Assembly (NCBI GenBank): GCA_027347985.1
Contig: DAIEQH010000001.1
Span: 1-56,176 of the forward strand
DNA length: 56,176 nt
Direction: 5' to 3'
DNA from: Candidatus Nomurabacteria bacterium
Lineage (GTDB): Bacteria > Patescibacteriota > Minisyncoccia > Phycocordibacterales > UBA9973
The position numbers and the translations under genes are program-made. Positions 10,694 to 38,492 of the stretch are shown piece after piece; position 1 is the first letter of the stretch; every line of letters begins with the position of its first letter. The notes beneath the pieces are model-generated. The model had not been told where the DNA came from, did not search any database, and saw only the letters and a list, made by a program, of their open reading frames with translations.

Positions 10694-10809
10694 AAAAATA
10701 AAAGAAAAAACTTTTTAAGGGGTTTGGCGAGCGACGGCGAGCCAACTTCAGGACTTTTTTAAGCTTCAAAAAATCCGTACCGACAAAAAGTTTGTTTCTT
10801 TTGTTTTTA
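10694..10809. repeat. About 110-nt MITE-like intergenic element, copy A
   Basis: Near-identical by eye (a few mismatches) to the reverse complement of 39068-39177. It contains the direct repeat GGCGAGC-gac-GGCGAGC, an A/T hairpin around AAGCTT, and A/T-rich terminal inverted repeats. Confidence 0.8.
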
Positions 10810-10816
10810 TAAATAC

Positions 10817-12181
10817 TTACAAAGTAATTACAACACTATCCCCTTTTTCTGGAGCAGAAGCATCAATTCCTAAATTGTCTCGAAGCCTTTGAACTAAAAA
10901 CATAGCTGACTTCGGCTCACCCATGACTACAAAAACTTTTTTGACTTTATCTTGCATATCTTCCACAAAATGAAAAAGGCCGTCTCCATCTTTATGTCCT
11001 GAATATCCTAGAATTTTTTCAACATGTGCTCGTACATTCACTTCCTCTCCAGAAATTTTTACTTTTTTTACTCCTTCTTCTATCAAACGCCCTAATGTAC
11101 CGGTAGACTGATAACCTGTAAGCAATATCGTATTGTTAGGATCAGGTAAATAATGTTTCTCGTGATGAACTATGCGCCCACCTGAAGACATTCCCGACCC
11201 CGCAATGACTATTTTAGGGTTAGGAGCATCATTAATCAACCTAGACTCTTCTGATTTCAGAGTAGAATGTAATCCAGGAAAATCAAATAGATATTTCTCA
11301 TGAGACATCGCTTTTTGTGCTTCTTCATTAAAATAACTTCTAAACTGTTTAAAAACTTCGGTTAAACGAATGGCGAGAGGAGAATCAAAAAATATAGGCA
11401 TCACTGGTATACGATTGTTTCCAACCAATTCATTAAGTTCAAACAGAAGTTCTTGAGAACGTTCAAGAGAAAAGGTTGGGATGATGAGTGTCCCCTTTCT
11501 TTTATAGTTGTCTTCAATAACTTTTTCCAATAGGCTTCTCCTGTCATTTCTAGATTCATGATTTCTATCTCCATAAACTGACTCCATTATTAAATAATCC
11601 GCATCTGTTATTTTTTCAGTATTTGGTAATAAAGGAGACGGAGAGTTCCCTAAATCTCCAGTAAAAAGAACCTTTTTACCATTATAAATAAACTCAACCA
11701 TAGCTGACCCTAAAATATGCCCAGCATCTTTAAAAGATACTTCCAAATTTGGAGTTATTTGTATTTTTTCGTGATAATCAAAGGTCATCCATTGTGTAAA
11801 TGCTTTACTTATATTTTCTTCAGAATATACCTTCCCTAAATTAAATTGTTTATTCTTCGACAAAATACCAGCCGTGTCTTCCAACATTGGCAATGTGAGT
11901 GCACGAGTAGGTTTCGTAGAATAAATCACCCCCTTGAAACCTTCATCAATTAATTTTGGGATTTTGCCGATATGGTCTATGTGTGAGTGAGTAATAAAAA
12001 GAATATCTATTGTTTTTGGGTCATAAGAAAAAGGCATCCAATTCACATCGTCTGCTATTTCAAAACCTTGGGTGAGTCCACAGTCAATCAATATTTTTTT
12101 GTTATCAATCTCAAAAAGAAAATTTGCTCCTGTGACACTTCCTGCTCCTGCACAAAATGTTATTTTAGCGATACTTGGCAT
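10817..12181 (-). CDS. MBL-fold beta-CASP RNA-processing hydrolase (RNase J/CPSF-like)
   Basis: HSHIDHIG metal motif, the beta-CASP segment GTLIIPTFSLERSQELL, and a C-terminal YSGHKD. Confidence 0.8.
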   Translation of the reverse strand: MPSIAKITFCAGAGSVTGANFLFEIDNKKILIDCGLTQGFEIADDVNWMPFSYDPKTIDILFITHSHIDHIGKIPKLIDEGFKGVIYSTKPTRALTLPMLEDTAGILSKNKQFNLGKVYSEENISKAFTQWMTFDYHEKIQITPNLEVSFKDAGHILGSAMVEFIYNGKKVLFTGDLGNSPSPLLPNTEKITDADYLIMESVYGDRNHESRNDRRSLLEKVIEDNYKRKGTLIIPTFSLERSQELLFELNELVGNNRIPVMPIFFDSPLAIRLTEVFKQFRSYFNEEAQKAMSHEKYLFDFPGLHSTLKSEESRLINDAPNPKIVIAGSGMSSGGRIVHHEKHYLPDPNNTILLTGYQSTGTLGRLIEEGVKKVKISGEEVNVRAHVEKILGYSGHKDGDGLFHFVEDMQDKVKKVFVVMGEPKSAMFLVQRLRDNLGIDASAPEKGDSVVITL

Positions 12182-19978: not shown

Positions 19979-21469
19979 TTATATCATAGGTTCTGCTTCC
20001 TGAGAAGCCACCTTTTTTGTTTCTGTTTCAGAAGTTTTTTCTTCTCCTTCACTTTTATTTTTCTTCCCTTTTCCTTCAATTATTGCTTTCTCTTCTGCAC
20101 TTCGGATAATCGTTGCCTCTTCTTCTTCAATAAGTTTTTGTGCGTCACCTTTGGAGATTGAATATTTCCTGCGAGATGCATCTAAAATTTCTTGACGATA
20201 TGAAGGATGAGTCGGAGGTAAAACTCTCAAAGATTCTGCAGAAAATGGATCGTAAGATTCTCCGTCAATAGTCATTTTGATATAAAATTCTGCCACAGCC
20301 AAGTTAATCATATCTTTCACACCGAACAGAGGCTCGAATTCTGGTTTTAATTTGACGGCATCTTCTCCACCGACTCTGAAACAAATGAGACTTCCTGTGT
20401 TTCCGAGCACTGCGTGTTGCACTTGTGGAATAAGCTGTCCGATGTACTGGTGCGCTATTGTCAGATTAAGAGCATATTTTCTAGCTTCTGACAAAATGTT
20501 TTCAAATGTTTGAGTGACAATGTTGTGGAACTCGTCTATGTACAAATAAAAGTCTCGACGTTCTGCTTCTGGAATACTTGCACGCTCCATTCCAGCTTGT
20601 TTTATTTTCGTCAAGAACATTGAACCGAAGAAACTTGAATTTTCTTCTCCAATGCGTCCTTTGGAAAGATTAATGAAAATGATTTTCCCTTCATTCATTA
20701 AGTCGCTGATATCTATTTTGTTTTGTTTCTGTCCGAAAATATTTCGGAGCAATGGGTCAGAGAGAAATTGTCCGAGTTTGTTGACTAGCGGAATGATAGC
20801 GTCCGTATCAAACTTCTCGGACCAATCCGCGAATTCAATAGCGAAGAATCTTTTAACCATGTCGTCAGTAATATACTCCACCACTTTCTGTCTGTAATTT
20901 CTGTCCGTCAACATTGAAATCATTCCGCGCATTGTGGCATGAGGATAATCAAGAAGTGCAAGGCAAGTGAAACGGAAAACGTGCTCTAAACGAGGAGTCC
21001 AGTTTGCTCCGAATTGTTTCTGCAAGACTTCGATTAAACCTTGAGTCAATTGAAACTTGAACATAGGATCGACATTCGCAAGCGGATTGAAGGAAGCTGG
21101 AAATTCAACATCTCCCGGGTCTATGACACAAATATCTTCTATGCGCTCTTTCGGAATATAATCAAGCATCGCGTCTATGACATCTCCGTGTGGGTCTATC
21201 AGACAAAGCCCGTGATTGTAAGTGACATCCTGACGGATAAGGAGCTCCAAGAGCTTCGTTTTACCAACGCCAGATTTTCCTACTATATATAGGTGTCTTC
21301 TACGGTCTATGCGTTTAATACCAAAGATAAATTTCTTCTCTTCTAGAGAAGCCACATAATTTGTGCGCCCAATAAAAGAAACCTCCTCAGGTTTAACTTT
21401 TCCAAATACTGGTAATTCTGGTGGAGGTGGTCCATATTTGATTATTTGCACTCGGTTCTGTCTTAACAT
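19979..21469 (-). CDS. TraD/VirD4-like coupling-protein-type NTPase, soluble (ATPase 2)
   Basis: 496 aa. Walker A GKSGVGKT, LIDPHGD, Walker B FYLYIDEFHN and EARKYALNLTIAHQY. The C-terminal tail is acidic/Lys-rich. No TM segment. Confidence 0.75.
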   Translation of the reverse strand: MLRQNRVQIIKYGPPPPELPVFGKVKPEEVSFIGRTNYVASLEEKKFIFGIKRIDRRRHLYIVGKSGVGKTKLLELLIRQDVTYNHGLCLIDPHGDVIDAMLDYIPKERIEDICVIDPGDVEFPASFNPLANVDPMFKFQLTQGLIEVLQKQFGANWTPRLEHVFRFTCLALLDYPHATMRGMISMLTDRNYRQKVVEYITDDMVKRFFAIEFADWSEKFDTDAIIPLVNKLGQFLSDPLLRNIFGQKQNKIDISDLMNEGKIIFINLSKGRIGEENSSFFGSMFLTKIKQAGMERASIPEAERRDFYLYIDEFHNIVTQTFENILSEARKYALNLTIAHQYIGQLIPQVQHAVLGNTGSLICFRVGGEDAVKLKPEFEPLFGVKDMINLAVAEFYIKMTIDGESYDPFSAESLRVLPPTHPSYRQEILDASRRKYSISKGDAQKLIEEEEATIIRSAEEKAIIEGKGKKNKSEGEEKTSETETKKVASQEAEPMI

Positions 21470-21548: not shown

Positions 21549-23234
21549 TTAGTATACTTCTTTATTATAACAACTCTTGCAATATATAATTTCTGGGCGT
21601 TCCGGTGCATAGCTTGTCTCAAATTCATTCTGGCATCCTTCTTTCATGCAATGTCTATGCCAGAGCTTAAATGGATTTTCTAATTGCAAACGTTCCTTTC
21701 TTCGACAATAAAAACATTTTCTAGGTATTGGAATTAAGTATTTTTTATAAAAAAGAAATTCATTTTTTGTAATTTTATAATTTCGATTACAAAGATCACA
21801 GGCTAGTACTTCATCTAATATAGATTCTTTAACTTCTAAAATTGAATCTTCTATCTGTTCTTTTTTAAGAGTTTCTTTATTTATTGTTTTTTGTACATCA
21901 TCCCACCATTTGAAACCATTATTAATTGCTTCTTCTTTGGTTAATGGAAAATATTCCATAGCTATAGTCTCATTGTATCCAAAATGTGATAATTTAGCAG
22001 GAAAAAATTCTCCATATTCTCCTGTTTTTTTCATATGTTCAATCAGTTTGTTTCTTAATTTAAAATACTCGTTTTTTGAATATTGTTTGTTTAAAATACA
22101 ATATTCTCCATGTTTGATAGCAGAACAACCAAATAGGTTTTTTGATGAATGGCAATTTTCAACATAGCTTGATTCTTGGCTTTTTAACGAATAAATAGAA
22201 AATAAAACTTGAAAATCGTGATCTGATGTGAGACTTTCATAAGACTCTGAACTTTTTCCACCAGGAGTAAGATCATAACTATCTTTTATTTCATTACTTC
22301 GCCAAATAAATCGTGAATCTTCTATTGCGCGGGACCAAAAAACATCTTTGGAATTTTTACTGTTTATTAAACCCTGTCCAGAGCATTTTACGCAATTTAA
22401 TATGTCGGCAAATCTTCTAATCTGCTTTTTCATAAATTCTGTAAACTCTTTTTTTGCTTTTTCTGATCCTGAATATGTTTCAAGATGATAATCTGCTAAT
22501 ATTTTTTCATATTTCTCTTTTGTATATTGCTTGTTCAAAATACAATATTTCTTTTGGCGTAAGTTTGCGCACATGAAACAATTAGAACAACCCTTACAAT
22601 CATAACAGAAAGAACAATCGTTGAGGGCAGAAGAATAGTAGCAATTTCGGCAATTGTAACAATGTTCCAAAAAAATTCCTTCATAAATAATTTGTGAGTA
22701 ATGAAAAATACCAAGACTGTCTACGACATCACTTGTTTCTGGACCTCCTATACTATAGCCATACATACAATCTTTGATAAACCAAGACATGGAGACCATG
22801 TAACAATTTTTAGCAAAAGTTACATTTTCTGTATATTCACAGTTTAGACTACCGATACCATCATCATTAAATAATGAGGGTAAGGGTACTTTGTCTTGCA
22901 ATTTTCTAAATTGTTCAAAAAAAGGTCGAGAAAAATCTAAATCCTGAGCATAACTTTTTGGATCCCATTTATCACTCCACCAACATTTATTACAATATAC
23001 TGTAAGCGACTTATCTTTATGATAAAGAGAAATTATAAGTTTTCCACACAAATCACAATTTCTGTTATAAAAAGTTATATCGTTACGCCAAGCCATTCTC
23101 CTTTGCTGTCTACATTCCGGACAAAAAGTCGGAGGGGGAACTTTTATCTTTTCATAAAATCCAAAATCATCTGACTCGATAGTGAAGTCTTTCTTACAGT
23201 TCTGGCAATTTTTTGTTTCACTTTTATATTCCAT
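21549..23234 (-). CDS. Cys-rich zinc-ribbon-capped protein, paralog 2
   Basis: 561 aa. CQNCKKDFTIE..FYEKIKVPPPTFCPECR, CDLC-x17-CNKC, two YCILNKQY(T/S)K units, and C-terminal CMKEGC-x17-CKSC. Confidence 0.7.
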   Translation of the reverse strand: MEYKSETKNCQNCKKDFTIESDDFGFYEKIKVPPPTFCPECRQQRRMAWRNDITFYNRNCDLCGKLIISLYHKDKSLTVYCNKCWWSDKWDPKSYAQDLDFSRPFFEQFRKLQDKVPLPSLFNDDGIGSLNCEYTENVTFAKNCYMVSMSWFIKDCMYGYSIGGPETSDVVDSLGIFHYSQIIYEGIFLEHCYNCRNCYYSSALNDCSFCYDCKGCSNCFMCANLRQKKYCILNKQYTKEKYEKILADYHLETYSGSEKAKKEFTEFMKKQIRRFADILNCVKCSGQGLINSKNSKDVFWSRAIEDSRFIWRSNEIKDSYDLTPGGKSSESYESLTSDHDFQVLFSIYSLKSQESSYVENCHSSKNLFGCSAIKHGEYCILNKQYSKNEYFKLRNKLIEHMKKTGEYGEFFPAKLSHFGYNETIAMEYFPLTKEEAINNGFKWWDDVQKTINKETLKKEQIEDSILEVKESILDEVLACDLCNRNYKITKNEFLFYKKYLIPIPRKCFYCRRKERLQLENPFKLWHRHCMKEGCQNEFETSYAPERPEIIYCKSCYNKEVY

Positions 23235-23277: not shown

Positions 23278-25029
23278 TTAGTATACCTCTTTGTTGTAAC
23301 ATTTCTCGCAATAAACTATTTCCGGTCTGTCGGGAGCATAGGCTGTCTCAAATTCATTCATACATTTTCCTGAATGCTCGTGATTCTTTTTTTCGCACAT
23401 ACAAGTCCTGTGCCAAAGCTTCATCGGATTTCTTTTTCTCAATCTTTCTTCGTGTCGACAGATAAAACAAAGCCGTGGTAAAGGCACTCCTAGTTGACGA
23501 TATAAACTCAATTCATCTTTTGTTATTTTATATGCACCCAAGCAACGATCTATACATTTCCCTTCATGTTCGCAACCAATGATTTCATTGGTAATTGATT
23601 CTGGAATATCTTCTAAGCTATCCATTATATCTTTAGCTTTCATTGTCGTGACATATTCACTTATTTTTCTGTCTCTCCATTTATATCCCCTTTTTATTGC
23701 TTCTTCTTTAGTTAAAGGAAAATAATCTTGGGCCACTGTTTCATTGTAAGTAAAAGTTGAAAATTCCGCAGGGAAAAACTCTCCATACTTATAGACAATT
23801 CCCCTCTTGTCAACATAAGGAACATCGTCCATCTGCTTTTTTATTTTAGGAATGAGAGCTTCATATTCTTCTTTAGTGTACTGTTTGTTTAAAATACAAT
23901 ATTTTTTACTTCGAAGTCCGATGCAACCAAATAAATTGTCACAACCATGGCAATTGAAAGCATATTCAATATTATTAGAACTATAAACCACACTAGTGAA
24001 AAGATTACGGAAATTTCCTATGCCAGTGTTAAATGCTTCATATATCATTTCGCCTTCCCCTATCCCCGGTCCTGAGTCATAAACATCTTTTGCATAAAGA
24101 GCAACCCAGTGTATATATTTCGAATCTTCAATTCGTGTTCCTGATGCATCAAAACAAAACTTACAATTTTTTACCCCATCTAGATTATCTCCTGTAGAAT
24201 TCACCATTTTAGAATAATTAGCAAAACGATGTATTGATTTAATATAAAGTTCATTAAATTTCTTTTTTAACTCCAAAATGGTTTTATAACTTTTTAAATT
24301 TATTTTTGCTAAGCGACTTAAATATTCATCTCTACTTAGTTGCTCATTCCACATACAATATGATTTATTGCGAAGATTTGTACAACCAAAACAATTTGTA
24401 CAACCATGACAATCGTACAAAAAACATGAATCTACACAACTTTTACAATTAAATGAATATCTAGTTCGATAACAATCAGTGCAAAACAAACAATCATAAC
24501 AAAGTTCACAACGATAACAAACATAAAGATCTCCGCAATCTGTCGTATACGAAATTCTATTAGAATAAAAAGTTCTATCTATTCTCCAAGAACCAGAACA
24601 CATATAACTGTCTTTACTTCCTTCAGCTACATTACAATAATCACTATTGGTGGCTTTTATATTTGAAAGACATTGAATAGGGCTACTATTTCTCAATTCC
24701 TCCCACTGTTTAAAAAATGGTTTAGAAAAATCATATTCTTTACCGAGGGAAATAGGGTCCCATTCATCTCCCCACCAATATTTAGAATCAACTACTTTTA
24801 ATTTTTCATTAGGATGAATAAAAGAAATCAACATTTCATCATGCCCTGGAGCATCACATTTTCTTCTAAAGAAAGACATTTCGTTTCTCCAACACAAACG
24901 GCGAACGGTCCGACATTCGGGACAGAAAGTCGGCGGAGGAACTTTTATTTTTTCATAGAATAAAAAATCTTCTATTTCTAGAGTGAAGTCTTTCTTGCAG
25001 TTCTGACAATTTTTGACTTCTTTTTTCAT
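23278..25029 (-). CDS. Cys-rich zinc-ribbon-capped protein, paralog 3
   Basis: 583 aa. Same N-terminal ribbon, but the second (x17) ribbon has lost its cysteines. Two LRxKxYC..N.Q units. C-terminal C-x17-CEKC. Confidence 0.7.
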   Translation of the reverse strand: MKKEVKNCQNCKKDFTLEIEDFLFYEKIKVPPPTFCPECRTVRRLCWRNEMSFFRRKCDAPGHDEMLISFIHPNEKLKVVDSKYWWGDEWDPISLGKEYDFSKPFFKQWEELRNSSPIQCLSNIKATNSDYCNVAEGSKDSYMCSGSWRIDRTFYSNRISYTTDCGDLYVCYRCELCYDCLFCTDCYRTRYSFNCKSCVDSCFLYDCHGCTNCFGCTNLRNKSYCMWNEQLSRDEYLSRLAKINLKSYKTILELKKKFNELYIKSIHRFANYSKMVNSTGDNLDGVKNCKFCFDASGTRIEDSKYIHWVALYAKDVYDSGPGIGEGEMIYEAFNTGIGNFRNLFTSVVYSSNNIEYAFNCHGCDNLFGCIGLRSKKYCILNKQYTKEEYEALIPKIKKQMDDVPYVDKRGIVYKYGEFFPAEFSTFTYNETVAQDYFPLTKEEAIKRGYKWRDRKISEYVTTMKAKDIMDSLEDIPESITNEIIGCEHEGKCIDRCLGAYKITKDELSLYRQLGVPLPRLCFICRHEERLRKRNPMKLWHRTCMCEKKNHEHSGKCMNEFETAYAPDRPEIVYCEKCYNKEVY

Positions 25030-25045: not shown

Positions 25046-27130
25046 TTATTCCAAAATTTTTCTTAAAACATCTTCTGGAACTTCTTTAGAATTTATTTTA
25101 GGAGGTGTAGGTATAGCAATTTCCTCTTTCTTTTCTTCCACTTTTGGAACTTCTTCTGTTTTTATATTAGTAGATTGAATAAAATTCTTTAACTTATCCA
25201 TGTCTTCCTTACTTGCAGATCTATCTTTTAAGGTATTATTGGAAACCGGTTTATTATTCTTTAATTCATCTAGTGAAATGGAAGGTTCTGGTATTTTTTC
25301 AACTTTTTTTATTTCTGGTTCTATTTTTTTCTCTTCTTTTTTATTGTCTAAAATTTTATTTTCATTGAGTGTCTTATTTAAAATTTCTCTCAATGCTAGA
25401 TTTTCTTTTGGTTTTTCTTTAACAAAAACTTTCTTAATTGCTGAAAACATTTTTGGACGTGCTGAAGCTGTCGTAGATATGGTAGAAGTTTCTTTAGTTG
25501 GAATTTTTTTCTGATATTCTTGTGTTAAAGGTTTATCTACTCTTTCTGGATATCTTTCATCTTCCCCGTTTTTATCTTTTGATAAGAATTCAATACCCAA
25601 ATCAGACAATGGTTTATAAAATTTACTTTCATCTTGTTTAATCTGTTTAATAGAACCGGCAAGTGGCTTTAATTCCCCAGATTTTATTTTAGCAATACAA
25701 TCTTTACAATATACTGCCCTGCCTGCTTCTGGTTTGAAAGGCACCATTGTTTCTTTCTTACAGATAGAACATACAGCTGGAAACTTCTCTACTCCGCCTA
25801 TCGCATTGTCGTCACCGACAGACATACCACTCCAATCATTTATTTCTCTTTCTACCACTTCTCTTGGACGACAATAGAGCTCGCGGGAAGTTTTAATAAC
25901 TTCGTCTTCAACTTCTTTATTTCCAGATTTAACCATAGGTGGTAAGGTTTTTGCAGAAAATGGGCGTGAGGTTATGCCATCTATCATCAGCTTTAAATAA
26001 ATTTTGAAGTTTGGTAAATTCACAATATCTTGAGGCACAAATTCTGGTTCAAATTCTTTTTCTAAAAATTCTGCATCATCTGCACCCACTCGGAAAACTA
26101 TCATCGTACCAACGTTACCGAAAATGGAATCTCTGACGCTAGAATTTTTCTCCGATATGAGCTGAGCGGTATATTGATGAGCCACCGTCAGATTCAATCT
26201 ATATTTTCTAGCCTCAGACAAAATACTAGCGAAAGCATCCGTCACGAAATTTTGGAATTCGTCTACGTAAAGATAGAAATCTTTTCTTTCATCTTCTGGG
26301 ATACGTACACGTTCCATGGCAGCAAGCTGAATCTTAGTGATGATCATTCCTCCTAGAAGCGAAGAGTTATCCTCACCGATGCGTCCTTTAGAAACATTCA
26401 CCAAAAAAATTTTTCCTTCATTCATTATGTCAAAAATATTTATTGTGCTTTTTGATTGACCGACAATATTTCTGATGATGGATGTGGAAAGAAATTGCCC
26501 GACTTTATTTTGGATAGGAGCAATAGCTTCATTTCTAAATTTATCCTGCCAAGCTTCATACTCGTGAACCCAGAAAGCTTTTATAACAGGGTCTTTTAAA
26601 TTTGAAATTATTTTCTGACGGTAATCTTTGTCCACCAACATTCGGGGTATGCCTAAAAGCGTCGAACCCGGAGTATCAAGCAATGCCAAAATCGCATTAT
26701 TTAAAATATATTCCATACGAGCACTCCAAGCATTCGCCCAAATTTTTGTGAAGATGCCCATCAATCCTGAAGCGACTAGATGCTTGTATTTCGGGTCAAT
26801 AAGTTCCAAGACGTTAAAACCGATATGGTGTTCCGTGTCGGCTGGATTGAAATAAATAACATCTTTCATGCGATGTGGCGGAATAGCCGATAAAATAGCT
26901 TCAACATTTTCTCCATGCGGGTCAACCATACAAACACCGTCACCATTTTCAATGTTCTGGATAATCATGTTGAACATTAGGGCAGATTTACCGGTACCAG
27001 ACTTTCCGAGAATATAAACATGCTGGCGTCTATCTTTACGTTTAATGCCAAAAAGCACATTTTTGTCTCTATAAGTAGTGTAACCAATATAGGTGAGTTC
27101 TTTATTTTTAGGTATTTCCTTTAATTCCAT
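25046..27130 (-). CDS. TraD/VirD4-like coupling-protein-type NTPase with a C-terminal CxxC-x17-CxxC zinc ribbon and a Lys/Glu-rich tail (ATPase 3)
   Basis: 694 aa. GKSGTGKS, VDPHGE, FYLYVDEFQN and EARKYRLNLTVAHQY. The ribbon CSIC-KKETMVPFKPEAGRAVY-CKDC is at nt 25697-25771. Its stop is 16 nt from the start of paralog 3. Confidence 0.75.
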   Translation of the reverse strand: MELKEIPKNKELTYIGYTTYRDKNVLFGIKRKDRRQHVYILGKSGTGKSALMFNMIIQNIENGDGVCMVDPHGENVEAILSAIPPHRMKDVIYFNPADTEHHIGFNVLELIDPKYKHLVASGLMGIFTKIWANAWSARMEYILNNAILALLDTPGSTLLGIPRMLVDKDYRQKIISNLKDPVIKAFWVHEYEAWQDKFRNEAIAPIQNKVGQFLSTSIIRNIVGQSKSTINIFDIMNEGKIFLVNVSKGRIGEDNSSLLGGMIITKIQLAAMERVRIPEDERKDFYLYVDEFQNFVTDAFASILSEARKYRLNLTVAHQYTAQLISEKNSSVRDSIFGNVGTMIVFRVGADDAEFLEKEFEPEFVPQDIVNLPNFKIYLKLMIDGITSRPFSAKTLPPMVKSGNKEVEDEVIKTSRELYCRPREVVEREINDWSGMSVGDDNAIGGVEKFPAVCSICKKETMVPFKPEAGRAVYCKDCIAKIKSGELKPLAGSIKQIKQDESKFYKPLSDLGIEFLSKDKNGEDERYPERVDKPLTQEYQKKIPTKETSTISTTASARPKMFSAIKKVFVKEKPKENLALREILNKTLNENKILDNKKEEKKIEPEIKKVEKIPEPSISLDELKNNKPVSNNTLKDRSASKEDMDKLKNFIQSTNIKTEEVPKVEEKKEEIAIPTPPKINSKEVPEDVLRKILE

Positions 27131-27179
27131 TCTGTAGTGAATTATACCCCAAAATTAAATTTTTATCAAAACAAAAAAA

Positions 27180-27836
27180 CTAATTTATTGGGCTAGAAAA
27201 ACACTCAATAGAAAAATACCTTTTATTTTTCAAACACTGAAGTATAACTCCATTATTTTTATTTTCCTTGATTAGTGAATCTAGGTCGTCTTTTCTATAA
27301 TAATCTTTTTGAAGATCATTTGAGTACTTAAGGATTTCTTGTTTGATCTCTATTTCTTTATCTTGTATATCTTCATTTTTTGCATAAGAAAATAGAAAAA
27401 TTCCAGATATTATAAATAAAACTTCTAATAAAATAAAAAATGTTCTCGAGAGTCCTAATTTTTTATTAATTATAAAATCAAATATTGAAACTAAAAAACT
27501 CATAGAACTAAGTAAAATTAAAGTCAGCCCAGTAATAGCATGCCAATCTCTATATGACCTAAAAACTTGAAAATCGATGGAAACAAAAGTAAATAAAGCA
27601 ACAAATATTCCTAATGTTTCAATCACTGATAATTTACTACTTTCTATCTTTTTATCATATTCTAATATTTTTTCATCTATTTTGTCTATTCTACGATTAA
27701 AACCTTCTTCAAAGGACGCTATGTATTTTGTATATCCTTCAATGGTTAAATATTGATGCTGAACAGAAGTATCTTTGGGTACTTCAATTATCTTTGTTTC
27801 TGTCTCCTGAAAATTTTCTTTATTTTCTGATTCCAT
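27180..27836 (-). CDS. Three-TM membrane protein with soluble N- and C-terminal coiled regions (unknown)
   Basis: 218 aa. Hydrophobic segments are LSVIETLGIFVALFTFVSIDF, ITGLTLILLSSMSFLVSIFDFII and FFILLEVLFIISGIFLFSY. Confidence 0.5.
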   Translation of the reverse strand: MESENKENFQETETKIIEVPKDTSVQHQYLTIEGYTKYIASFEEGFNRRIDKIDEKILEYDKKIESSKLSVIETLGIFVALFTFVSIDFQVFRSYRDWHAITGLTLILLSSMSFLVSIFDFIINKKLGLSRTFFILLEVLFIISGIFLFSYAKNEDIQDKEIEIKQEILKYSNDLQKDYYRKDDLDSLIKENKNNGVILQCLKNKRYFSIECFSSPIN

Positions 27837-27841
27837 ATATT

Positions 27842-28474
27842 TTACAAAAGAATTTGTTCTGACTTAGAAATAGCATCTCTAATAAAATTAGTTAAAACCT
27901 TATCTTTAAAAGAATTTTTTGATAAATCTTCTAAAAGAGTATTAATATCTCTCATTATAATAACTCCTTTTTTTTGACTTCCATTTTTTTCATCTTTTAT
28001 AAACCCACTTTCATACATCTGAGAATTATTAACGTTAACTCCAGATAAGTTAATAACCTCATTAAAACGAATTACTATTTGTGTTGGATTGATAGTTGAA
28101 ATCACTTTTTTATCAAAAAGATTTTTTAATTCTTCAATGGTAATTTCTTTAAACGTAGTAGTAACAACACCTATTCTCCCAATTTCAACAGAGAGGCCTG
28201 ACAAAACATTAAGTATATTAGGGAAAAATTTTTCAAAGAAACTTGAATCAGTAGAGAAAAAATCAATTCTATTTATTGCAAGATTTATATCTACACTACT
28301 TGATTTAATAATTAACCTTGGAATTTCAGGCGGCATATTAGCAGGAATTCCTAATTGAGTTACTACACCATCTCCAAATTCTTTTTTTATTAAAAGTGAA
28401 GCTTTTTCAAGTTGATCAGAATAATTTGATTTAAAGAAGAGACTTATTTGCAATTTAATAAATTGTTTTGCCAT
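27842..28474 (-). CDS. Hypothetical protein (210 aa, soluble, no family recognised)
   Basis: ORF only. It is tightly packed, with a 1-nt gap to the upstream gene and a 5-nt gap to the downstream gene. Confidence 0.45.
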   Translation of the reverse strand: MAKQFIKLQISLFFKSNYSDQLEKASLLIKKEFGDGVVTQLGIPANMPPEIPRLIIKSSSVDINLAINRIDFFSTDSSFFEKFFPNILNVLSGLSVEIGRIGVVTTTFKEITIEELKNLFDKKVISTINPTQIVIRFNEVINLSGVNVNNSQMYESGFIKDEKNGSQKKGVIIMRDINTLLEDLSKNSFKDKVLTNFIRDAISKSEQILL

Positions 28475-28475
28475 G

Positions 28476-28757
28476 TTATTTATTATCTCCTGGTTCTTTT
28501 AAATCGGCCATTTGAATGGGACTTTGTATTTGTGGTGGAGTCATATCAATTTCTCCAAATTGTTTCTCGTAGTTTTGAACTTGTCCATTAATCCACATTG
28601 CTATACTTTTCATAACTTGTGGCGTAGTCGCAAAAGAATCAAGACTATTTCCAGAGGTTATGGCAAAAGTAAAAAATTCTTTTCCGTGAGCCCCAAAGGC
28701 ACCATCACAAAACTTTTTTGGTAATTGATTTATGTCTATTTTTGTTGGGTCAATCAT
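28476..28757 (-). CDS. DUF3467-like small protein
   Basis: The C-terminal part TTPQVMKSIAMWINGQVQNYEKQFGEI resembles the DUF3467 signature as I recall it (..P.hAK.l...L...i..YE..FG.I). The start was set at MIDPTK (28757) rather than the track start at 28796. Confidence 0.5.
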   Translation of the reverse strand: MIDPTKIDINQLPKKFCDGAFGAHGKEFFTFAITSGNSLDSFATTPQVMKSIAMWINGQVQNYEKQFGEIDMTPPQIQSPIQMADLKEPGDNK

Positions 28758-28804
28758 ATTTTTATTTTTTCTTATTACTAATAATAAAACTAACAATAAT
28801 TATA

Positions 28805-30712
28805 CTACACTTTAGGAGCTTCCCCTTCTCCTTTTTCGTTTTCCTTGTATTCTGCATCATGAACTTCGGGATTTTGTTCTTCCGGGGCTTGAGCTGGAGG
28901 AGTTTCAGCGCCAGCTTTATTCATTGCTTCACCGATTTTGGACATCTCATTTGAAAGTTCTTCTGTTGCTTTTTTAATAGCTTCAGAATCTGTTCCATCT
29001 TTTACACTTCTTAAAGCAGTTATTTTTGCATTTACATTATCTTTTACATCTGCAGGGATTTTTGCTTCATTATCTTTCAACGCCTTTTCGGCAGTGTAAA
29101 TAATCATCTCTGCAGTATTTTTTATGTCAACAATTTCTCTTTTCTTTTTATCTTCTTCAGCGTGAAGCTCTGCATCTTGTTGCATTTTTTTAATGTCTTC
29201 TTCCTTAAGTCCAGAACTTGCTTCAATTTTAATTGATTGAGCCTTACCTGAAGCTTTATCTTTTGCAGTCACATTCAATATTCCGTTTACATCAATATCA
29301 AATGTCACTTCTACTTGTGGCATACCACGTGGTGCTGGTGGAATTCCATCTAGAATAAAGCGCCCTAGAGATTTATTGTCAGTAGCCATTGGGCGTTCTC
29401 CTTGAACGATATGAATTTCTACAGAAGTCTGATTATCAGCAGCGGTTGAAAATACTTGAGATTTTGAAGCTGGAATAGTTGTGTTTCTATCAATTAATTT
29501 TGTAGCAACTCCCCCTAATGTTTCAATACCAAGAGAAAGTGGAATAACGTCAAGCAATAGTACATCTCGTACATCTCCTGCAAGCACACCTGCTTGTACG
29601 GCTGCACCGAGAGCTACGACTTCATCCGGATTTATAGACATATTAGGAGTTTTACCAAAAAGATTTTTTACAGCTTCTACTATTGCTGGCATTCTTGTTT
29701 GTCCTCCAACCATTATAATTTCATTTATTTCAGCCATCTTAAATGGTGAAGCATCAAGAGCTCTTTTCGTTATTTCAATTGATCTATCTATATATTCTTT
29801 CGCAATAGACTCAAGAGTGGCTCGAGACATTTTCATAAGCAAATGTTTTGGACCACTGGCGTCAGATGTAATAAATGGAATATTTATTTCTGCTTCTAGT
29901 GTTGTAGAAAGTTCATGCTTAGCTTTTTCAGCTGCTTCTTTTAATCTTTGATGTGCTAATGGGTCCTTCCTCACATCTACACCTGATTCTTTTTTATATT
30001 CTTCAGCAATCCAAGAAATTATTTTTCTATCAATATCTCCTCCACCCATGTGAGAGTCACCATCTGTGGACTTAACTTCTATCACATCATCTCCAATTTC
30101 AAGTACAGAAACATCAAAAGTTCCTCCACCGAAATCATAAACAACTATCTTTTCATTTTTCTTTTTATTAAAACCATATGCAAGGGCCGCAGCTGTCGGT
30201 TCATTTATGATTCTTTTTACATCAAGCCCTGCTATCTGTCCTGCATCCTTTGTTGCCTTTCTTTGAGCATCATTAAAATATGCAGGCACGGTGATGACAG
30301 CTTCGGTAATTTTTTCTCCAAGCTTTGCCTCCACATCCGTTTTTATTTTCTGTAAAATCATTGCAGAAATTTCTTCTGGACGATAAAATTTATCTGACAT
30401 TTTTACTTTTACTCCGCCATTGTCTCCTTGTTCAATTTTAAATGGAGCTGTTGCTTTATCTTTCTGTACTTCTGGATCATCAAATCTGTGACCCATATAT
30501 CTTTTTATTTCAGAAATTGTATTCTCAGGATTTGTGACAGCTTGTCTCTTTGCAAGAAGTCCGACGATACGGTCACCATTCTTTGCTGTCGCAACGACAG
30601 AAGGAGTGGTGCGATTACCCTCCACATTTTCAATAATTTTTGGCACGCCTCCTTCAATGAAAGCAACTGCCGAATTTGTTGTACCTAAATCTATACCTAT
30701 TATTTTTGACAT
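28805..30712 (-). CDS. dnaK: Chaperone DnaK (Hsp70)
   Basis: [19 protein letters not shown], and full-length Hsp70 architecture. Confidence 0.97.
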
Positions 30713-30811
30713 ATATTTTATAAGGTTATTTTATAATGTTTAATAATTTTACTAATATTTCGCGACCACTAAAAACTTGTATAAAAGTAGTATATATGAT
30801 AAGCTATATGA

Positions 30812-31363
30812 ATGTCAAGCAAAATAGAATATTCCAATAAAATACTCAAGATTTTGGCAGAAAAACCAGCTATTCCTGTAGATGAAATAAAGAAAAAAAT
30901 TACCACCCCAGACCCCCTCTTCCACAAGGAGGGGGCATATGCCTTAACTCGCTCAATAAAAAATTTGATTGAGTCTGGATGTATTGAAATGATTCAATCT
31001 GACAATAAGAGCTATTTGAAGTTAACCAAAAAAGGAAAAAATAAATTAAACTCCATCAAACTCGAGGGAGATCAAGCACTCGTGTCTAATACTTGGGACG
31101 GTTTGTGGAGAATAATTATTTTAGATATTCCAGAAAACAGAAAAAACGAACGAGAAAGTTTGCGTTATCTTTTAAAGAAAGCTGATTTCGTTTGTATCAA
31201 AAATACTGTTTGGATATCCCCTTTTCCTTACGAACATCTTTTTACAAATATTAAAAAAGATTTAGGTCTCGGTACCGAGCTCATGATTATCGTCACAGAC
31301 AAAATTGACGAAGAAACAAAAAAATATTTTTTAAATAATGTTTTTAAATCCTCCAGCTTGTAA
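30812..31363 (+). CDS. PaaX-family-like winged-helix regulator
   Basis: N-terminal wHTH-like region plus WDGLWRIIILDIPENRKNERESLRYLLKKADFVCIKNTVWISP (PaaX C-domain pattern). It is divergent from dnaK. The 3' end overlaps the convergent ABC gene by 33 nt. Confidence 0.6.
   Translation: MSSKIEYSNKILKILAEKPAIPVDEIKKKITTPDPLFHKEGAYALTRSIKNLIESGCIEMIQSDNKSYLKLTKKGKNKLNSIKLEGDQALVSNTWDGLWRIIILDIPENRKNERESLRYLLKKADFVCIKNTVWISPFPYEHLFTNIKKDLGLGTELMIIVTDKIDEETKKYFLNNVFKSSSL
30903..30935. repeat. GC-rich palindromic mini-element, in frame inside the PaaX-like ORF
   Basis: ccaccccagaccccctcttccacaaggaggggg, encoding TTPDPLFHKEG. Confidence 0.65.
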
Positions 31364-33178: not shown

Positions 33179-34888
33179 TTAATAGATTTCTTTCTTATAA
33201 CACTCACTACAAAGCACTTTTTTAGGACCACCTTTTTCCTCTCGCAAATAAGTGGTGTTAATCTCTTTCTTACATAGAAAACATTCTCTTTTGTTTAAAA
33301 TCATAGGATTACGAAGCTTTAATCTTCTATTGTGTCGTTCTTCCGGATGAATCGAGGGTAACGGTAAATCAAATCTTCTATAAAAATTTAATTCTTGTTC
33401 TATAATTTTAAAAGGTTTACCGGTAATTTCACATTCGATAACTTCATTTAAAATAGAATCATTTACTTCAGAGATTGTCTTCGGTAAATCTTTACCTTTT
33501 ATTGTAACTTTATAAGAGCCAGGAATATATTCACGCCATAGGTATCCCTTCTCTTCTGCTGTTTTTTTATCTAAAGGAAAATAATCTTGAGCAACAGTTT
33601 CATTGTAAGCAAAAGGAGAAAGCTCGGAAGGAAAAAATTCACCATATTTATATACTCTACCTTTTTTGTCTACATATGGCATATCTAGCATATGCTGTTT
33701 TATTTTAGGAACCAGTTCTTCATATTTTTCTTTCGTATATTGTTTATTTAGAATACAGTATTTTTTCCCATTCATTTCTGTACAACCAAAACAATTCTGA
33801 CAATTATTCATCATAAAACTATAATAAATATCTTGAGAATACCAAATAATTGCACCCAAAAAACATTTACTATTTTCAACCCCAATACTTATACCTTCAT
33901 ATGTTAATTCTGAATTACCCCCAGAACCAGGACCGACATCATAAGCGTCACTACACCCCTGACTACCCCAATTTGCATATTTTACATTTTGAAATTCACC
34001 GTCTAAATCAAAAACATTATAACAATTGCGTGAGTTATATACATGGTCGCCGACAACATTTACAGTATTTACGAGTTTCACATCTCTATGAAATGCTTCT
34101 TCCCAAAGTTTTTTAAATTTGTTTCTAGCCTCTTCTATACCATCACGCGTGTTAAAAGCAAACTCATTTTTCTTCTTTAAATATTCCTCTTTTGTATATT
34201 GAATATTTTCAATGCAGTAAGTTTTATTTCTAAGATTAGTACATAAAATACAGTTAGAACAATTTCGGCAATCATATAAAAAATAAGAATCTAGGCAAGA
34301 TTCACTTTCTAGTGAAAAAAATAATCTACTGGAGTCTCGGCAATATACATTTTCATATCCGAACTCCAAATCATAACAAATATAAGAATCCTGAATAAAT
34401 TTACATCTAGATGCTCTATTGCAATATACGGAATCTTCACAATTCCAAGCTGCAGTAACTAAATAGCAGTTTTTCATTTCAACTGTTACATTACAAAATC
34501 TAGAATTTACCGACTTTGAATCAGATAAGGCAAGATGTGGCACTTCTTCCATAAGTTCAGCAAATTGTTTTAAAAATGGTTTAGAAAAATCATATTCTCT
34601 TCCATAAGAAGATGAATCCCATTTATCACTCCACCACATTTCTTTATCATAAGTTTTTACTCTAGCATCAGGATGAAAAACTGAGATAATTAAATCTTTT
34701 TTTCTCTCTTCTGCGTCTTGTCTACGAAACAACGAATGTTCATTTCGCCAAACGAGACGACGAGTTAGCCGACACTCTGGACACCAAGTAGGTGGAGGAA
34801 CTTTTATCTTTTCATAAAAATTAAAATCTTCCAACTCTATGGTAAAGTCTTTTTTGCAGTTCTGGCATTGTTTGATTTCTGATTTCAT
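33179..34888 (-). CDS. Cys-rich zinc-ribbon-capped protein, paralog 4
   Basis: 569 aa. CQNCKKDFTIE..FYEKIKVPPPTWCPECR. The x17 ribbon is degenerate. Two YCI.N.QYTKE.Y units. C-terminal CFLC-x20-CSEC. Confidence 0.7.
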   Translation of the reverse strand: MKSEIKQCQNCKKDFTIELEDFNFYEKIKVPPPTWCPECRLTRRLVWRNEHSLFRRQDAEERKKDLIISVFHPDARVKTYDKEMWWSDKWDSSSYGREYDFSKPFLKQFAELMEEVPHLALSDSKSVNSRFCNVTVEMKNCYLVTAAWNCEDSVYCNRASRCKFIQDSYICYDLEFGYENVYCRDSSRLFFSLESESCLDSYFLYDCRNCSNCILCTNLRNKTYCIENIQYTKEEYLKKKNEFAFNTRDGIEEARNKFKKLWEEAFHRDVKLVNTVNVVGDHVYNSRNCYNVFDLDGEFQNVKYANWGSQGCSDAYDVGPGSGGNSELTYEGISIGVENSKCFLGAIIWYSQDIYYSFMMNNCQNCFGCTEMNGKKYCILNKQYTKEKYEELVPKIKQHMLDMPYVDKKGRVYKYGEFFPSELSPFAYNETVAQDYFPLDKKTAEEKGYLWREYIPGSYKVTIKGKDLPKTISEVNDSILNEVIECEITGKPFKIIEQELNFYRRFDLPLPSIHPEERHNRRLKLRNPMILNKRECFLCKKEINTTYLREEKGGPKKVLCSECYKKEIY

Positions 34889-35001
34889 TTTATTTAAAAT
34901 TCCTCAACCAAAAAATTTTAACTCTAAATTTAATTGTCTGCCAAGCCATAGGCATGACATATCTGATATATTTTATTTTTGTTTTTATTCTTTCCATTTT
35001 A

Positions 35002-36780
35002 TTATATAAATTCTGCTTGATAACATTTCTCACAATATACTATCTCTTTTCTTTCAGGACTTATGGCTGTTTCAAATTCATTTTGACAAGGACTATTTCC
35101 GTGTATATGTTTTATGGTATTTTTATATACACCATCTTTTGATTCTACACCACTACACATACATTTTCTATGCCAAAGTTTTGGTGGATTTTTCTTTTTA
35201 ATTCGTTCACCATAACGACAATTTGGACATAAGTGAGGTAAAGCTATATTCGCCGAACGAAGAAACTGTAATTCATCAGGTAAAATGCGAAACACTTCAG
35301 TACATTCTTGTTTGCAATCTTCGTCTTTATGTTCACAAGAAATAACTTCATTTAATATAGAATCGTCTACTTCTTTTATATGATTTGGTAAATTTTCTGC
35401 TTTTATTGTTATTTGATAATTTTTTTCTTTCTTATCATACCATTTAAATCCTTTTTCCAATGCTTCCTCTTTACTTAATGGAAAATATTTATGTGCCCAA
35501 GTTTCATTATAGGCCCATAGAGAAAATTCACTTGGAAAATATTCACCATATTTGTATATTCTTCCTTTACTATCTATATAGGGCATTTCATTCATATGTT
35601 TAATAATTTTTGGTATTAGTTCTTCGTATTCAACTTTCCCGTATTGTTTATTTAAAATACAATATTTTTTATTTTTTAACTTTGTACAACCAAAACAATA
35701 AGAACAATTGTACATTTTTTCTGTATATGTTAAATCTCTAGAATCATAAGGAGCTCTACCAAAAAAACATCTTTGAGAGTGGAGGCCTCCAGAATTCTCA
35801 TAATAGAGTTCGGAACTACCGCCACCCAAAATAACATCATAACTATCTTTCAACAAAAGGCCACTAAGAAAAACATATTTACAATTTTCTATACCAAGAA
35901 GCGTAGAAAAACAAGTCTGACAATTTTTCGTTTGTTTTATATCATCCCCAGTAACATTTTTAGAGTTTATAATAATGGCAAAGCGTCTTGGAGTTTTGTC
36001 ATAGAGTTCTAAGAATTTTTTTTGTGCCTCCTGAATAGTCTTATAACTTCCTAAATCCCATTTCATCATTTCTTTCTCATACTCTTCTTTTGTGTATTGT
36101 TTATTAAAAATACAATATTTTTGATTTCTCAAATTAACACAACCAAAACAATTTGTGCATCCTATACAATTAAAAAGGAAAGAAGAATCGAGACATTCAT
36201 TTGAAAAATAGGTAAATTTCGTATTAAAAACTCCATTTGAATATATAGTTTCGTAAGTATGATCAGCATTTACAATTACATCGGAATCTAATAAATCTCT
36301 AGAAAATATTGGATTACCACAATAATAACAATTTATGCTTTGAAAAGATCCGAAAGTAAGCCTACAATTTTTACTACGTATAGTGGTATCACAATAATCG
36401 CAATCAGTACAATTTCTATTATCCGTAGCTTGGTAAGGTACTTCGTTTTGTAAATTCAAAAATTGTTCAAAAAATGGTTTTGAAAAATCATAGTCTCGTC
36501 CATAATCCAATTGATTCCAACTGTCTCCCCACCAGCAACTGTTACAATAGACAATATAAGAAGTATCAGGACGATATAAACTTACAATTTCTTTACCACA
36601 CTTATCACAACTATCTTTATATAAAAATCTATCTCCAATAAAAGTAAGTCGACGAATAAGTCTGCATTCCGGACACCAGGTCGGCGGAGGAACCTTAATT
36701 TTCTCATAGAAATTAAAGTCTTCGGGCTCAATCGTGAAGTCTTGTTTACAGTTTTGGCATTGTCGTGTTTCGTTTTTCAT
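35002..36780 (-). CDS. Cys-rich zinc-ribbon-capped protein, paralog 5
   Basis: 592 aa. CQNCKQDFTIE..PPPTWCPECR, CDKC-x17-CNSC, two YCI(F/L)NKQY units, and C-terminal C-x17-CEKC. Confidence 0.7.
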   Translation of the reverse strand: MKNETRQCQNCKQDFTIEPEDFNFYEKIKVPPPTWCPECRLIRRLTFIGDRFLYKDSCDKCGKEIVSLYRPDTSYIVYCNSCWWGDSWNQLDYGRDYDFSKPFFEQFLNLQNEVPYQATDNRNCTDCDYCDTTIRSKNCRLTFGSFQSINCYYCGNPIFSRDLLDSDVIVNADHTYETIYSNGVFNTKFTYFSNECLDSSFLFNCIGCTNCFGCVNLRNQKYCIFNKQYTKEEYEKEMMKWDLGSYKTIQEAQKKFLELYDKTPRRFAIIINSKNVTGDDIKQTKNCQTCFSTLLGIENCKYVFLSGLLLKDSYDVILGGGSSELYYENSGGLHSQRCFFGRAPYDSRDLTYTEKMYNCSYCFGCTKLKNKKYCILNKQYGKVEYEELIPKIIKHMNEMPYIDSKGRIYKYGEYFPSEFSLWAYNETWAHKYFPLSKEEALEKGFKWYDKKEKNYQITIKAENLPNHIKEVDDSILNEVISCEHKDEDCKQECTEVFRILPDELQFLRSANIALPHLCPNCRYGERIKKKNPPKLWHRKCMCSGVESKDGVYKNTIKHIHGNSPCQNEFETAISPERKEIVYCEKCYQAEFI

Positions 36781-36821
36781 GTTCTAATGCTTATTTTTGT
36801 CAAAGCCGAGCTTTGACATTT

Positions 36822-38492
36822 TTAGTTGATATTTTGCTTATAACACTCTTCACAAGCTATTTTTTGATATCCCCACTCTGGTAAATAATACGCTTCTATC
36901 TCCTTTTTACAATAAATACATTTATATGCATATGCTTGCAATACTGTTAAATCTTTCAAACTATTTTTTATTCTGACATCAAAATGCAACCTTGGGAGTG
37001 GAATATTATTTTCTTTATAAAAAATAAGTTCATTTTTTGCAATGTTAAAACGCCAGCCAGTTTCTGGGCAAATAAGCGCTTGAGTGATTATTGTATCCGA
37101 TACGTCTTTGATATCATCTGGCAATTCACTCGTTTGCATACCTTCTAAATTTTCTTCAACAATATCTTCCCAATAACCACCGAGTTTTAAGATATCTTCT
37201 TTTCTTGTCCTTGGGAAATAAGTAAAGCTGGTAGAAAAATTAAAAGGCCCAGCACTCATAGAATAAGGCAAAAACTTACCATATTCTCCTCTTTTTCTCA
37301 TGTCTTCAATAATCTTTGTCTTGAGCTTGTCGAAAGATTCTTTGGTGTATTGCTTATTTAAAATACAATATTTTTTCTTTTTTAAACCAACACAACCGAA
37401 ACAATATTCACACTCAATACATAAATCTATATATTCAGAATATCTTGAAGAAGACCAAACCGAATACTTAAGAGAAAAAGCATTTACACAGGCAGCACAA
37501 TTGCCAGATAATTCCATATACCAACAACCATTCGTATCAATGTTAGATTTTTCTTTTATTCCTCTAATACAATTAAAACAATCCTCACTTTCATTTATAG
37601 TATAACAACTATGACAATTCTTACAGTCTAACAAATAATCTCCAGTCGAATCATATATTCTAAAATTAAAGTTTGGTCTATGTATTACTTCTTTTTTTAC
37701 AATCTCTTCAAAGTGCTTCTTGTGATTTTGTATAGATTCATAAGAACCAAGCTTAAACGATTTTAATTTTTCTAAATACTCTTCCCTTTCATACTGAACA
37801 TTCTCTATACAATAGGATTTACCCCTTAAATTCCAACACATAAAACAATTCTGGCAGTTACGACAATCATAAAGAAAATATGAATCTACGCAATCTCGAG
37901 AGTGTTTGGAGTAAAATAGTTTGTAAGAATGATGACAGTCGCCAATTTCATAACATTTTTCTGAAGTAAAGCTGATAACTGCTTCGATAGAATTTTTAAC
38001 TTTCAAATCTCTATAACAATAATATAGGTCTTCACATTCTTCCATTGAGCGTGCTAAATAACAATTTTTAGAATTCCAGACATCATCACACCATTCGCAA
38101 TTTGTATTCTTTATACCATTCTGGTGCGGATGGGGGACTTTTTCTTGAAGCTCTTGAAGTTGTTCAAAAAACGACTTATTTTCATCATAATCTTGACCAT
38201 AATCCATCGCATCCCATTTATCGCTATACCATTCCGTGGAAGTATAAATCGGATAGCGATTTTTCTCTGGCAAAACTGTGATTAAACTTTCTCCCGAAAG
38301 GTCTGATTTACCTTTTCGAAATTTTCCAAACATCCAGAAAGATAAATGTATTTTTACACGACAAAAGAAACATATTACAGGTAATTCTATACCGACTTTT
38401 TCATACAAAGAAAGTTCCCCCTCTGTTATTTCAAAGGAATTATTACAGTGCTCACAAGTTTTACTTTGCTGTTTCATTGTACTCAAAAACAT
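36822..38492 (-). CDS. Cys-rich zinc-ribbon-capped protein, paralog 6 (most divergent)
   Basis: 556 aa. CEHCNNSFEITEGELSLYEK..CFFCR, two YCI(E/L)N.QY units, and C-terminal CIYC-x18-CEEC. An alternative start is M6 at 38477. With either start, the 5' end overlaps the grpE 3' end. Confidence 0.65.
   Translation of the reverse strand: MFLSTMKQQSKTCEHCNNSFEITEGELSLYEKVGIELPVICFFCRVKIHLSFWMFGKFRKGKSDLSGESLITVLPEKNRYPIYTSTEWYSDKWDAMDYGQDYDENKSFFEQLQELQEKVPHPHQNGIKNTNCEWCDDVWNSKNCYLARSMEECEDLYYCYRDLKVKNSIEAVISFTSEKCYEIGDCHHSYKLFYSKHSRDCVDSYFLYDCRNCQNCFMCWNLRGKSYCIENVQYEREEYLEKLKSFKLGSYESIQNHKKHFEEIVKKEVIHRPNFNFRIYDSTGDYLLDCKNCHSCYTINESEDCFNCIRGIKEKSNIDTNGCWYMELSGNCAACVNAFSLKYSVWSSSRYSEYIDLCIECEYCFGCVGLKKKKYCILNKQYTKESFDKLKTKIIEDMRKRGEYGKFLPYSMSAGPFNFSTSFTYFPRTRKEDILKLGGYWEDIVEENLEGMQTSELPDDIKDVSDTIITQALICPETGWRFNIAKNELIFYKENNIPLPRLHFDVRIKNSLKDLTVLQAYAYKCIYCKKEIEAYYLPEWGYQKIACEECYKQNIN

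Follow-up and report, generated by a model that had tools for sequence, protein, structure and literature searches.

In the 56,176-nt stretch of DNA analysed here (hereafter, the window), which comes from a Candidatus Nomurabacteria bacterium, three minus-strand open reading frames (ORFs) lie directly downstream of dnaK (28805-30712, minus): A (28476-28757), B (27842-28474) and C (27180-27836). A encodes a DUF3467-like protein of 93 amino acids (aa), B a soluble protein of 210 aa and C a membrane protein of 218 aa. With a probability that we put at roughly 55%, B and its partner C would be the variable core of an undescribed mobile module of Patescibacteria (Candidate Phyla Radiation, CPR), an accessory module of the conflict type that may act in defence, in abortive infection or in a toxin-antitoxin (TA)-like manner. 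This reading was reached because the two genes are paired, foreign in composition, fast in evolution and placed in the neighbourhood of defence islands. The general form of the module is an SDH/ClpP-fold protease followed by B and C. The window carries a protease-less B-C, which sits 1 nt behind A; the slot that it occupies, with dnaK-A on one side and a TraD-like ATPase on the other, is variable. A is a conserved resident gene outside the mobile pair. The original prediction had taken all three ORFs for one compact cassette; the ORF calls bear out the layout it described, on the same strand with gaps of 1 nt (A-B) and 5 nt (B-C).

Loci for comparison, labelled L001 and so on, come from single scans of genomes, of metagenomes and of viral sequences, supplemented by exact look-ups. 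The comparison loci are all metagenomic contigs or metagenome-assembled genomes, in which ORFs were called by our own script, clustered and scanned with hidden Markov models (HMMs), and our own removal of duplicates left about 22 non-redundant arrangements of B-C. It is evident that B and C are an obligate, always-linked pair: a gene of the C family, recognised by HMM, directly follows B in all 28 loci that have downstream DNA, with gaps between the two of -17 to +15 nt. The gene upstream of B is variable. In 11 arrangements it encodes an SDH/ClpP-fold serine protease (PF01972), and since these include every distant B homologue examined (27-37% identity), protease-B-C is regarded as the general form of the module. 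In seven arrangements (window, L001, L011, L012, L013, L015 and L022) it is A, always with an A-B gap of 1-4 nt. In one arrangement (L024/26) it is dnaK, which is itself preceded by A, and in three (L018, L021 and L027-29) it is another or unknown gene. No SDH homologue was found within the 56-kb window. In the tree of B, read qualitatively, the A-linked proteins are not one clade, and the SDH-linked L010/L002 group and L025 fall among them. In L016, a protein with a BRO-N domain (978-1820) sits between the SDH protease and B; the BRO-N family is typical of phages.

With regard to composition, it had been noticed by eye that the stretch from A to C is more AT-rich than its flanks. This holds for B and C but not for A. 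The GC content of B is 25.8%, with 13.3% at third codon positions (GC3), the lowest of the 50 genes in the window (z = -2.5), and that of C is 25.3%, with a GC3 of 16.9% (z = -2.4 in the same per-gene survey), whereas A, with a GC of 34.4% and a GC3 of 22.3%, matches the window mean of 34.1%. Measured over 150-nt windows, an island of 18-29% GC extends from about 27130 to 28474 and spans B, C and the short spacer after C, between flanks of 35-42%. The packed trio is thus not one compositional or evolutionary unit. The same was seen in other hosts. In all 16 non-redundant loci that have enough flanking genes, B has 23-33% GC and C 24-35%, against 33-52% in the flanks, while A and SDH track the host. 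In L030, for example, the flanks have a GC of 52% and a GC3 of 58% and SDH 55% and 71%, against 31.5% and 22% in B and 31.5% and 24% in C; the GC steps at the start of B and at the stop of C, from 55% to 32% and back to 45-55%. In L015, the respective values of GC and GC3 are 49% and 59% in the flanks, 48% and 54% in A, 33% and 29% in B, and 29.5% and 23% in C. The composition of B-C is foreign in every host.

Moreover, B-C evolve fast; compared with the anchor gene upstream, they show an excess of synonymous divergence and signs of recombination. The SDH proteases of L019 and L020 are 98% identical in amino acid sequence with a synonymous divergence (dS) of 0.21, whereas the adjacent B proteins are 68% identical with a dS of 0.96. 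Among L002, L019 and L020, the orders of similarity obtained with SDH, B and C disagree with one another. The ratio of nonsynonymous to synonymous divergence (dN/dS) rises from 0.04 in SDH to about 0.2 in B and reaches 0.7-0.8 in C at most; several of the underlying dS values are near saturation. Between the window and the syntenic locus L001, identity falls from 86% for DnaK through 65% for TraD, 64% for A and 47% for B to about 31-34% for C. Such a host-like anchor, followed by a sharply AT-rich, linked and fast-diverging pair, gives a handle on cassette exchange in organisms that cannot be cultured. We infer that B-C move by homologous exchange anchored on the conserved upstream gene.

A stands apart from this pair. 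Its true start is ATG 28757, giving 93 aa, and all homologues likewise begin with MIDP; a reading of 106 aa from TTG 28796, as first called, is an extension by ORF calling. The predicted likeness to DUF3467 has a weak match behind it: A aligns to Pfam PF11950 (DUF3467) with an E-value of 7.7e-5 and 23.1 bits, under the gathering threshold of 25 bits, and only over 29 model positions (64-92) in the C-terminal part of the model. Beyond this match, A had none in Pfam, NCBIfam, PADLOC, PHROGs or PDB sequences. Several close homologues of A (P0034, P0043, P0064 and P0097) bear precomputed PF11950 matches. A has 650 homologous clusters, the best 120 of them at 74-90% identity with the window's own cluster excluded, and the named ones belong to Paceibacterota, Minisyncoccota or Patescibacteria. 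B is patchy by comparison, with 5 close clusters by word search and 39 by profile search against at least 650 for A. In contexts of A sampled regardless of B, A occurs without B-C in five of five, namely dnaK-A-(other small genes)-TraD ATPase in L008, ClpB-285 aa-A in L006, GuaA-A in L037, GIY-YIG-A in L041 and A-Ald_deCOase in L004. Since A is conserved alone, has a host-like GC and lacks B-C in these contexts, it does not belong to an acquired trio. Thus the expectation of a separately acquired trio is supported for B-C, which are foreign in composition and evolve separately, and fails for A, which is conserved and ordinary in composition, as the prediction itself had said would speak against it. 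Likewise, travelling together is confirmed for B and C and not for A. In seven arrangements, A serves as the upstream neighbour, or docking position, for B-C. For annotation, a DUF3467-like gene beside dnaK is a conserved resident and should be kept apart from the cassette. The structural model of A is of low confidence (pLDDT 67.7), with three strands and a long helix; Foldseek of this model gave nothing better than an E-value of 0.4, so that a SecB-like or chaperone fold, which had been considered, is unsupported. In the literature on DUF3467, PF01972 and the SDH proteinase, nothing relevant was found.

In an operational sense, B-C are residents of defence islands, being recurrently beside known defence genes. 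In 13 of the 22 arrangements, a raw count with no background model, a defence or toxin gene is no more than three genes away from B-C. The neighbours are Dcm-HpaII-Vsr; a D12-class methylase (Dam), a DUF6996/6997 protein and an N4/N6 methylase, upstream in L010/17 and downstream in L021; N6_N4 methylases of 274, 570 and 721 aa; GmrSD/HNH in L032-34, L023 and L012 and as a fragment in L022; a 194-aa ORF (putative AbiEi) followed by AbiEii, upstream in L045; and a weak PBECR3-like gene with the toxin-like HicA in L030. The earlier guess of a defence or toxin-type cassette is thus supported for B-C by their neighbours, with A excluded and the function assigned by association only.

One of these neighbours recurs directly after C. 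Apart from a conserved ORF start (MSKYEKFSKEEL...), no motif is common to the loci after C, and this start belongs to the N6_N4 DNA methylase of 721 aa. Downstream of C, the methylase is intact in L015, at least its N-terminus is present in L016 and L018, whose contigs end inside it, and only decayed, truncated remnants are left in L002/L014, L019, L020 and L021. The coexistence of intact and remnant copies points to the decay of an ancestral B-C-methylase linkage.

Insertions into otherwise conserved gene orders were also seen. The order is hrcA-grpE-[SDH-B-C-GmrSD]-dnaK-dnaJ in L032-34, PBP-Mur ligase-[SDH-B-C]-...-MraY in L020 and dnaK-[B-C]-dnaJ in L024/26. In L032-L034, the block of about 5400-11650 combines SDH and B-C with a type IV restriction enzyme (GmrSD/HNH) inside an otherwise canonical heat-shock operon. 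In these genomes, B-C seem to land repeatedly in the heat-shock operon.

With regard to phages, a B homologue of 27% identity was found just after an Amidase_2 endolysin at the ends of three IMG/VR contigs of a predicted phage (L027-L029). These contigs differ in length and stop at the same base inside the B-like gene, which occupies their last 680 nt or so; the shared end may mark the terminus of a genome, or a hypervariable region at which the assembly broke off. In tblastn searches of GenBank phages, neither B nor the B-like protein of these contigs had a match. SDH-type proteases occur alone in an E. coli phage-plasmid (NZ_CP081704; L043, 2229-3224), between the Q antiterminator and a lambda-type holin, and in Gordonia phage BeeGee (L044, 3920-4882), between tail genes and the immunity region, with 38% and 26% identity to the CPR ones, respectively. 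Such solitary genes at moron positions hint that the protease family itself may be an accessory or conflict gene on phages. The protein encoded after the SDH-like gene of BeeGee (gp32, 212 aa) showed no homology to B.

The B protein was rightly said to have no recognisable motif: no credible match was found in Pfam, NCBIfam, PADLOC, PHROGs or PDB sequences, the weak ones below the cut-offs being HAD_2 (17.7 bits), phrog_27442 (E-value 0.057) and PDB entries (E-value of 0.68 or more). At 50% identity, the family has 284 representative clusters with E-values of 1e-3 or less, which are single-domain proteins of about 205-250 aa, fragments aside. A search of 71 diverse members against Pfam, NCBIfam and PADLOC also gave nothing credible, only matches of single members with E-values of 8e-4 to 8e-3; in PADLOC, one member weakly matched Cas7b (E-value 0.0084). 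The family has its own conserved motifs (QxALFF, APxEIPRL, NxSKNRxDxF, IGRIGFV, CNNxQ and RDINT). Its near-invariant polar residues, R53, R69, D71, R100, R136, N138, N149, D176 and N178, suggest a binding or catalytic surface. An AlphaFold2 model of B (pLDDT 77.5, pTM 0.76) consists of two consecutive S1-H1-S2-S3-S4-S5-H2 units, and B is therefore predicted to be two tandem TBP/helix-grip-like repeats. Foldseek of the model found AdoMetDC, TBP, START/PYL and giant-virus TBP-like proteins, all weakly (TM-score 0.36-0.51): AdoMetDC and TBP at 0.36-0.44, the TBP matches alone at 0.38-0.44 with E-values of 8e-4 to 1e-2, and the best one in BFVD at 0.51. The order of elements and the TBP and viral TBP-like matches are suggestive of the TBP-domain/helix-grip fold, but B has no profile match to solved structures and no detectable sequence repeat between its halves. 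Moreover, non-TBP members of this fold carry single copies of the domain (PMC3597702), while that of B would be double.

The C protein has, as had been noted, three hydrophobic segments between charged ones (hydropathy; about residues 67-93, 99-124 and 126-153). Its layout is a charged N-terminus, a coiled coil, three transmembrane helices and a charged C-terminal coil. In the family alignment, the N-terminal motif is I-(F/L)-L-P-K-(S/T)-x-T-G-G, degenerate in the window, where it reads I-x-(L/I/V)-P-K. The family shares a coiled coil and either one or three transmembrane helices, and the forms with three share IE-x-(I/L)-G-(I/M)-F in the first helix. Most members end with a CL-x7-10-C pair, in the window Cys-x10-Cys (QCLKNKRYFSIEC). 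The odd number of helices and the terminal Cys pair suggest a topology with the N-terminus inside and the C-terminus outside. The C of the window had no credible match in Pfam, NCBIfam, PHROGs, PDB sequences or PADLOC, where only a model of 'unknown function' scored 16.8 bits, and five C-like proteins had none in PADLOC, the one of L035 weakly matching ZorB (E-value 1.3e-4) and Cas11.

Taken as a mechanism, C would be a membrane effector and B its cytoplasmic sensor or inhibitor, which would hold or control the N-terminal peptide and the coiled coil of C in the cytoplasm. A trigger such as infection or stress would remove or change B, through the dedicated ClpP-fold protease where one is present and, in the window, through housekeeping chaperones or proteases. 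The freed C might then oligomerise and damage the membrane, and the outcome may be abortive infection, exclusion or TA-like addiction. A bolder form is that SDH (or A), B and C are a new class of proteolysis-gated membrane-effector immunity in CPR bacteria, in which B would be a sensor with double TBP-like repeats and the AT-rich, hypervariable B-C would be swapped by recombination behind the conserved anchor, as in polymorphic toxin/immunity loci; we offer this version tentatively and think it rather unlikely as a whole.

The transcription signals of the window bear on how these genes are read together. A promoter-like site, TTGACA-18-TATACT (11 of 12 consensus positions; 30789-30818, minus), lies upstream of dnaK, and no terminator-like site was found on the minus strand from there through C, so that dnaK-A-B-C are probably co-transcribed. 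Another promoter-like site, TTGATA-17-TATAAT (11 of 12; 27141-27169, minus), lies in the 49 nt that separate C from the TraD-like ATPase and suggests that the ATPase has its own transcript. No CIRCE/HrcA operator was found in the window.

Several facts weigh against B-C as a mobile conflict module. The window's own neighbourhood has no defence gene, and the link to defence is guilt by neighbourhood, drawn from metagenomic contigs with our own ORF calls, in which several arrangements share ancestry. B, C and SDH have no homology to proven defence, abortive infection (Abi) or TA proteins, and PADLOC gave nothing. With regard to mobility, no integrase, transposase or recombinase is among the annotated neighbours, and no flanking direct repeats, terminal inverted repeats or attC-like sites were found, only AT-rich chance repeats around the island. 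The low GC3 could reflect selection for low expression instead of transfer. The match of B to the TBP fold is weak (TM-score 0.4-0.5). Finally, four arrangements (counted by position: window and L001, L024/26 and L032-34) have B-C at the dnaK operon and most have B-C next to a protease, to which a role in proteostasis fits too. B-C with SDH or A would then be a housekeeping module of membrane proteostasis tied to the heat-shock machinery and no conflict system. The partnership with a ClpP-fold protease, the DnaK, ClpB, ClpP and PepA genes among the neighbours of A and the probable common promoter of dnaK-A-B-C are consistent with this. However, a housekeeping role is hard to reconcile with the patchy distribution of B-C, their foreign composition in every host, their rapid and incongruent evolution, the GmrSD gene inside the L032 insertion and the defence neighbours in 13 of 22 arrangements, as well as with the lack of CIRCE in the window, and we consider it quite improbable.

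Two other explanations keep the pair and change its meaning, and neither convinces us, both being doubtful to about the same degree. The pair could be a selfish, TA-like addiction system that stabilises islands without protecting against phages, with C as membrane toxin and B as labile antitoxin, which SDH or cellular proteases would degrade. In its favour are the tight operon of two genes, the protease gene immediately before them in most loci, the location among restriction-modification (R-M), AbiE and HicA genes and the AT-rich, mobile behaviour. On the other hand, B-C have no homology to known TA families, and typical antitoxins are small, unlike B with its 210 aa and many invariant residues (Arg, Asp and Asn); from the sequence alone, addiction cannot be told from defence. 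It may also be that A, B and C are one functional unit in which A replaces the SDH protease as the first component. The A-B gap of 1-4 nt in seven of seven A-B-C arrangements favours this, as do the persistence of the trio while the gene upstream of A varies (DnaK, ClpP, PepA, RadC or the GmrSD fragment) and the fact that a gene other than A or SDH is almost never before B-C. Nevertheless, A is highly conserved, stand-alone and host-like in GC, none of its contexts sampled irrespective of B contains B-C, its copies beside B-C are ordinary orthologues of 63-86% identity with no special clade, it has no similarity to SDH, and in L024/L026 dnaK intervenes between A and B.

Far less probable than any of these, and highly improbable in our view, is the alternative offered by the original prediction, that the cassette is the membrane part of the surrounding system of TraD/VirD4-like ATPases and Cys-rich proteins. 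B-C adjoin the 694-aa ATPase in the window and lie near its homologue in L001, and it is only in these two that they occur together with the ATPase and Cys-rich genes, about 20 arrangements of B-C being without them. Conversely, L008 has the same backbone as the window (Cys-rich genes, PaaX_M, dnaK, A ... TraD ATPase and a Cys-rich gene) with other genes in the slot of B-C, which means that the slot is variable and that the system does not need B-C. The promoter-like site of the ATPase and the compositional break at the stop of C also separate the two. B-C as part of this system was rejected, and the conflict-type module is the reading that we prefer.

Small membrane-effector cassettes in defence islands are already known as a kind, whereas the libraries searched contain neither the B and C families nor the architecture protease-B-C. 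Known examples are the lactococcal two-component Abi systems, Kiwa KwaA/KwaB and the transmembrane effectors of CBASS and Thoeris. B-C resemble them in being a small, tight operon of one soluble and one single- or multi-pass membrane protein, with a GC well below that of the host, patchy and beside R-M and other defence genes. They differ in that B, C and SDH show no sequence or HMM similarity to them in PADLOC (four SDH proteases were compared, with no match), that a ClpP-fold protease is the usual third gene, and that, so far, B-C are known only from contigs of CPR bacteria and from one contig of a predicted phage. A second likeness is to the stomatin/NfeD (STOPP) operons, in which a ClpP-fold membrane protease is paired with a coiled-coil membrane protein. 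Here also a ClpP-fold serine protease is encoded upstream of a coiled-coil membrane protein, which suggests a protease-substrate pair. However, the protease is PF01972 (SDH) and not NfeD, C has no SPFH domain (Pfam), the TBP-like B intervenes, and the operon is mobile and patchily distributed. Defence in CPR bacteria is generally taken to lean heavily on R-M, with few other systems known. A module that recurs in defence islands and has no entry in the catalogues would add a candidate to the CPR immune repertoire.

The 694-aa ATPase beyond the 49-nt spacer after C is TraD/VirD4-like with a CxxC-x17-CxxC zinc finger, and it is one of three TraD/VirD4/HerA-like P-loop ATPases on the minus strand (13534-16281, 19979-21469 and 25046-27130). 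Large Cys-rich proteins are encoded at 21549-23234, 23278-25029 and 33179-38492, also minus. The genes of five Pfam-less proteins (556-592 aa) are interspersed with those of the three ATPases, the set lying between dnaK and dnaJ/map; the three of the five that were compared cluster with the Cys-rich protein of 583 aa, the other two being at 35002-36780 and 36822-38492. Since the backbone recurs in L001 and L008, this set appears to be a separate, conserved and as yet uncharacterised system of CPR bacteria.

Divergently from dnaK, the window encodes a protein of 183 aa (30812-31363, plus) with the central Cas2-like domain of PaaX (PF20803) and a winged-helix N-terminus. This gene keeps the same position in L008 and L024/26, and, as HrcA/CIRCE was not found in the window, the protein may regulate the dnaK locus in their stead. 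The gene with the lowest GC in the window is at 43932-44576 (plus; 24.0%, z = -2.7), on the strand opposite to nearly all its neighbours, and may be another acquired gene. The window as a whole is low in GC (about 34%), as is typical of CPR bacteria, and carries a tmRNA gene and tRNA genes. Among the latter, ARAGORN reported a tRNA-Ile with the anticodon TAT (3745-3818, minus) and a tRNA-Ser with the anticodon ACT (943-1028, minus), both anticodons being unusual in bacteria; the tRNA-Ser(ACT) adjoins a normal tRNA-Ser(GCT).

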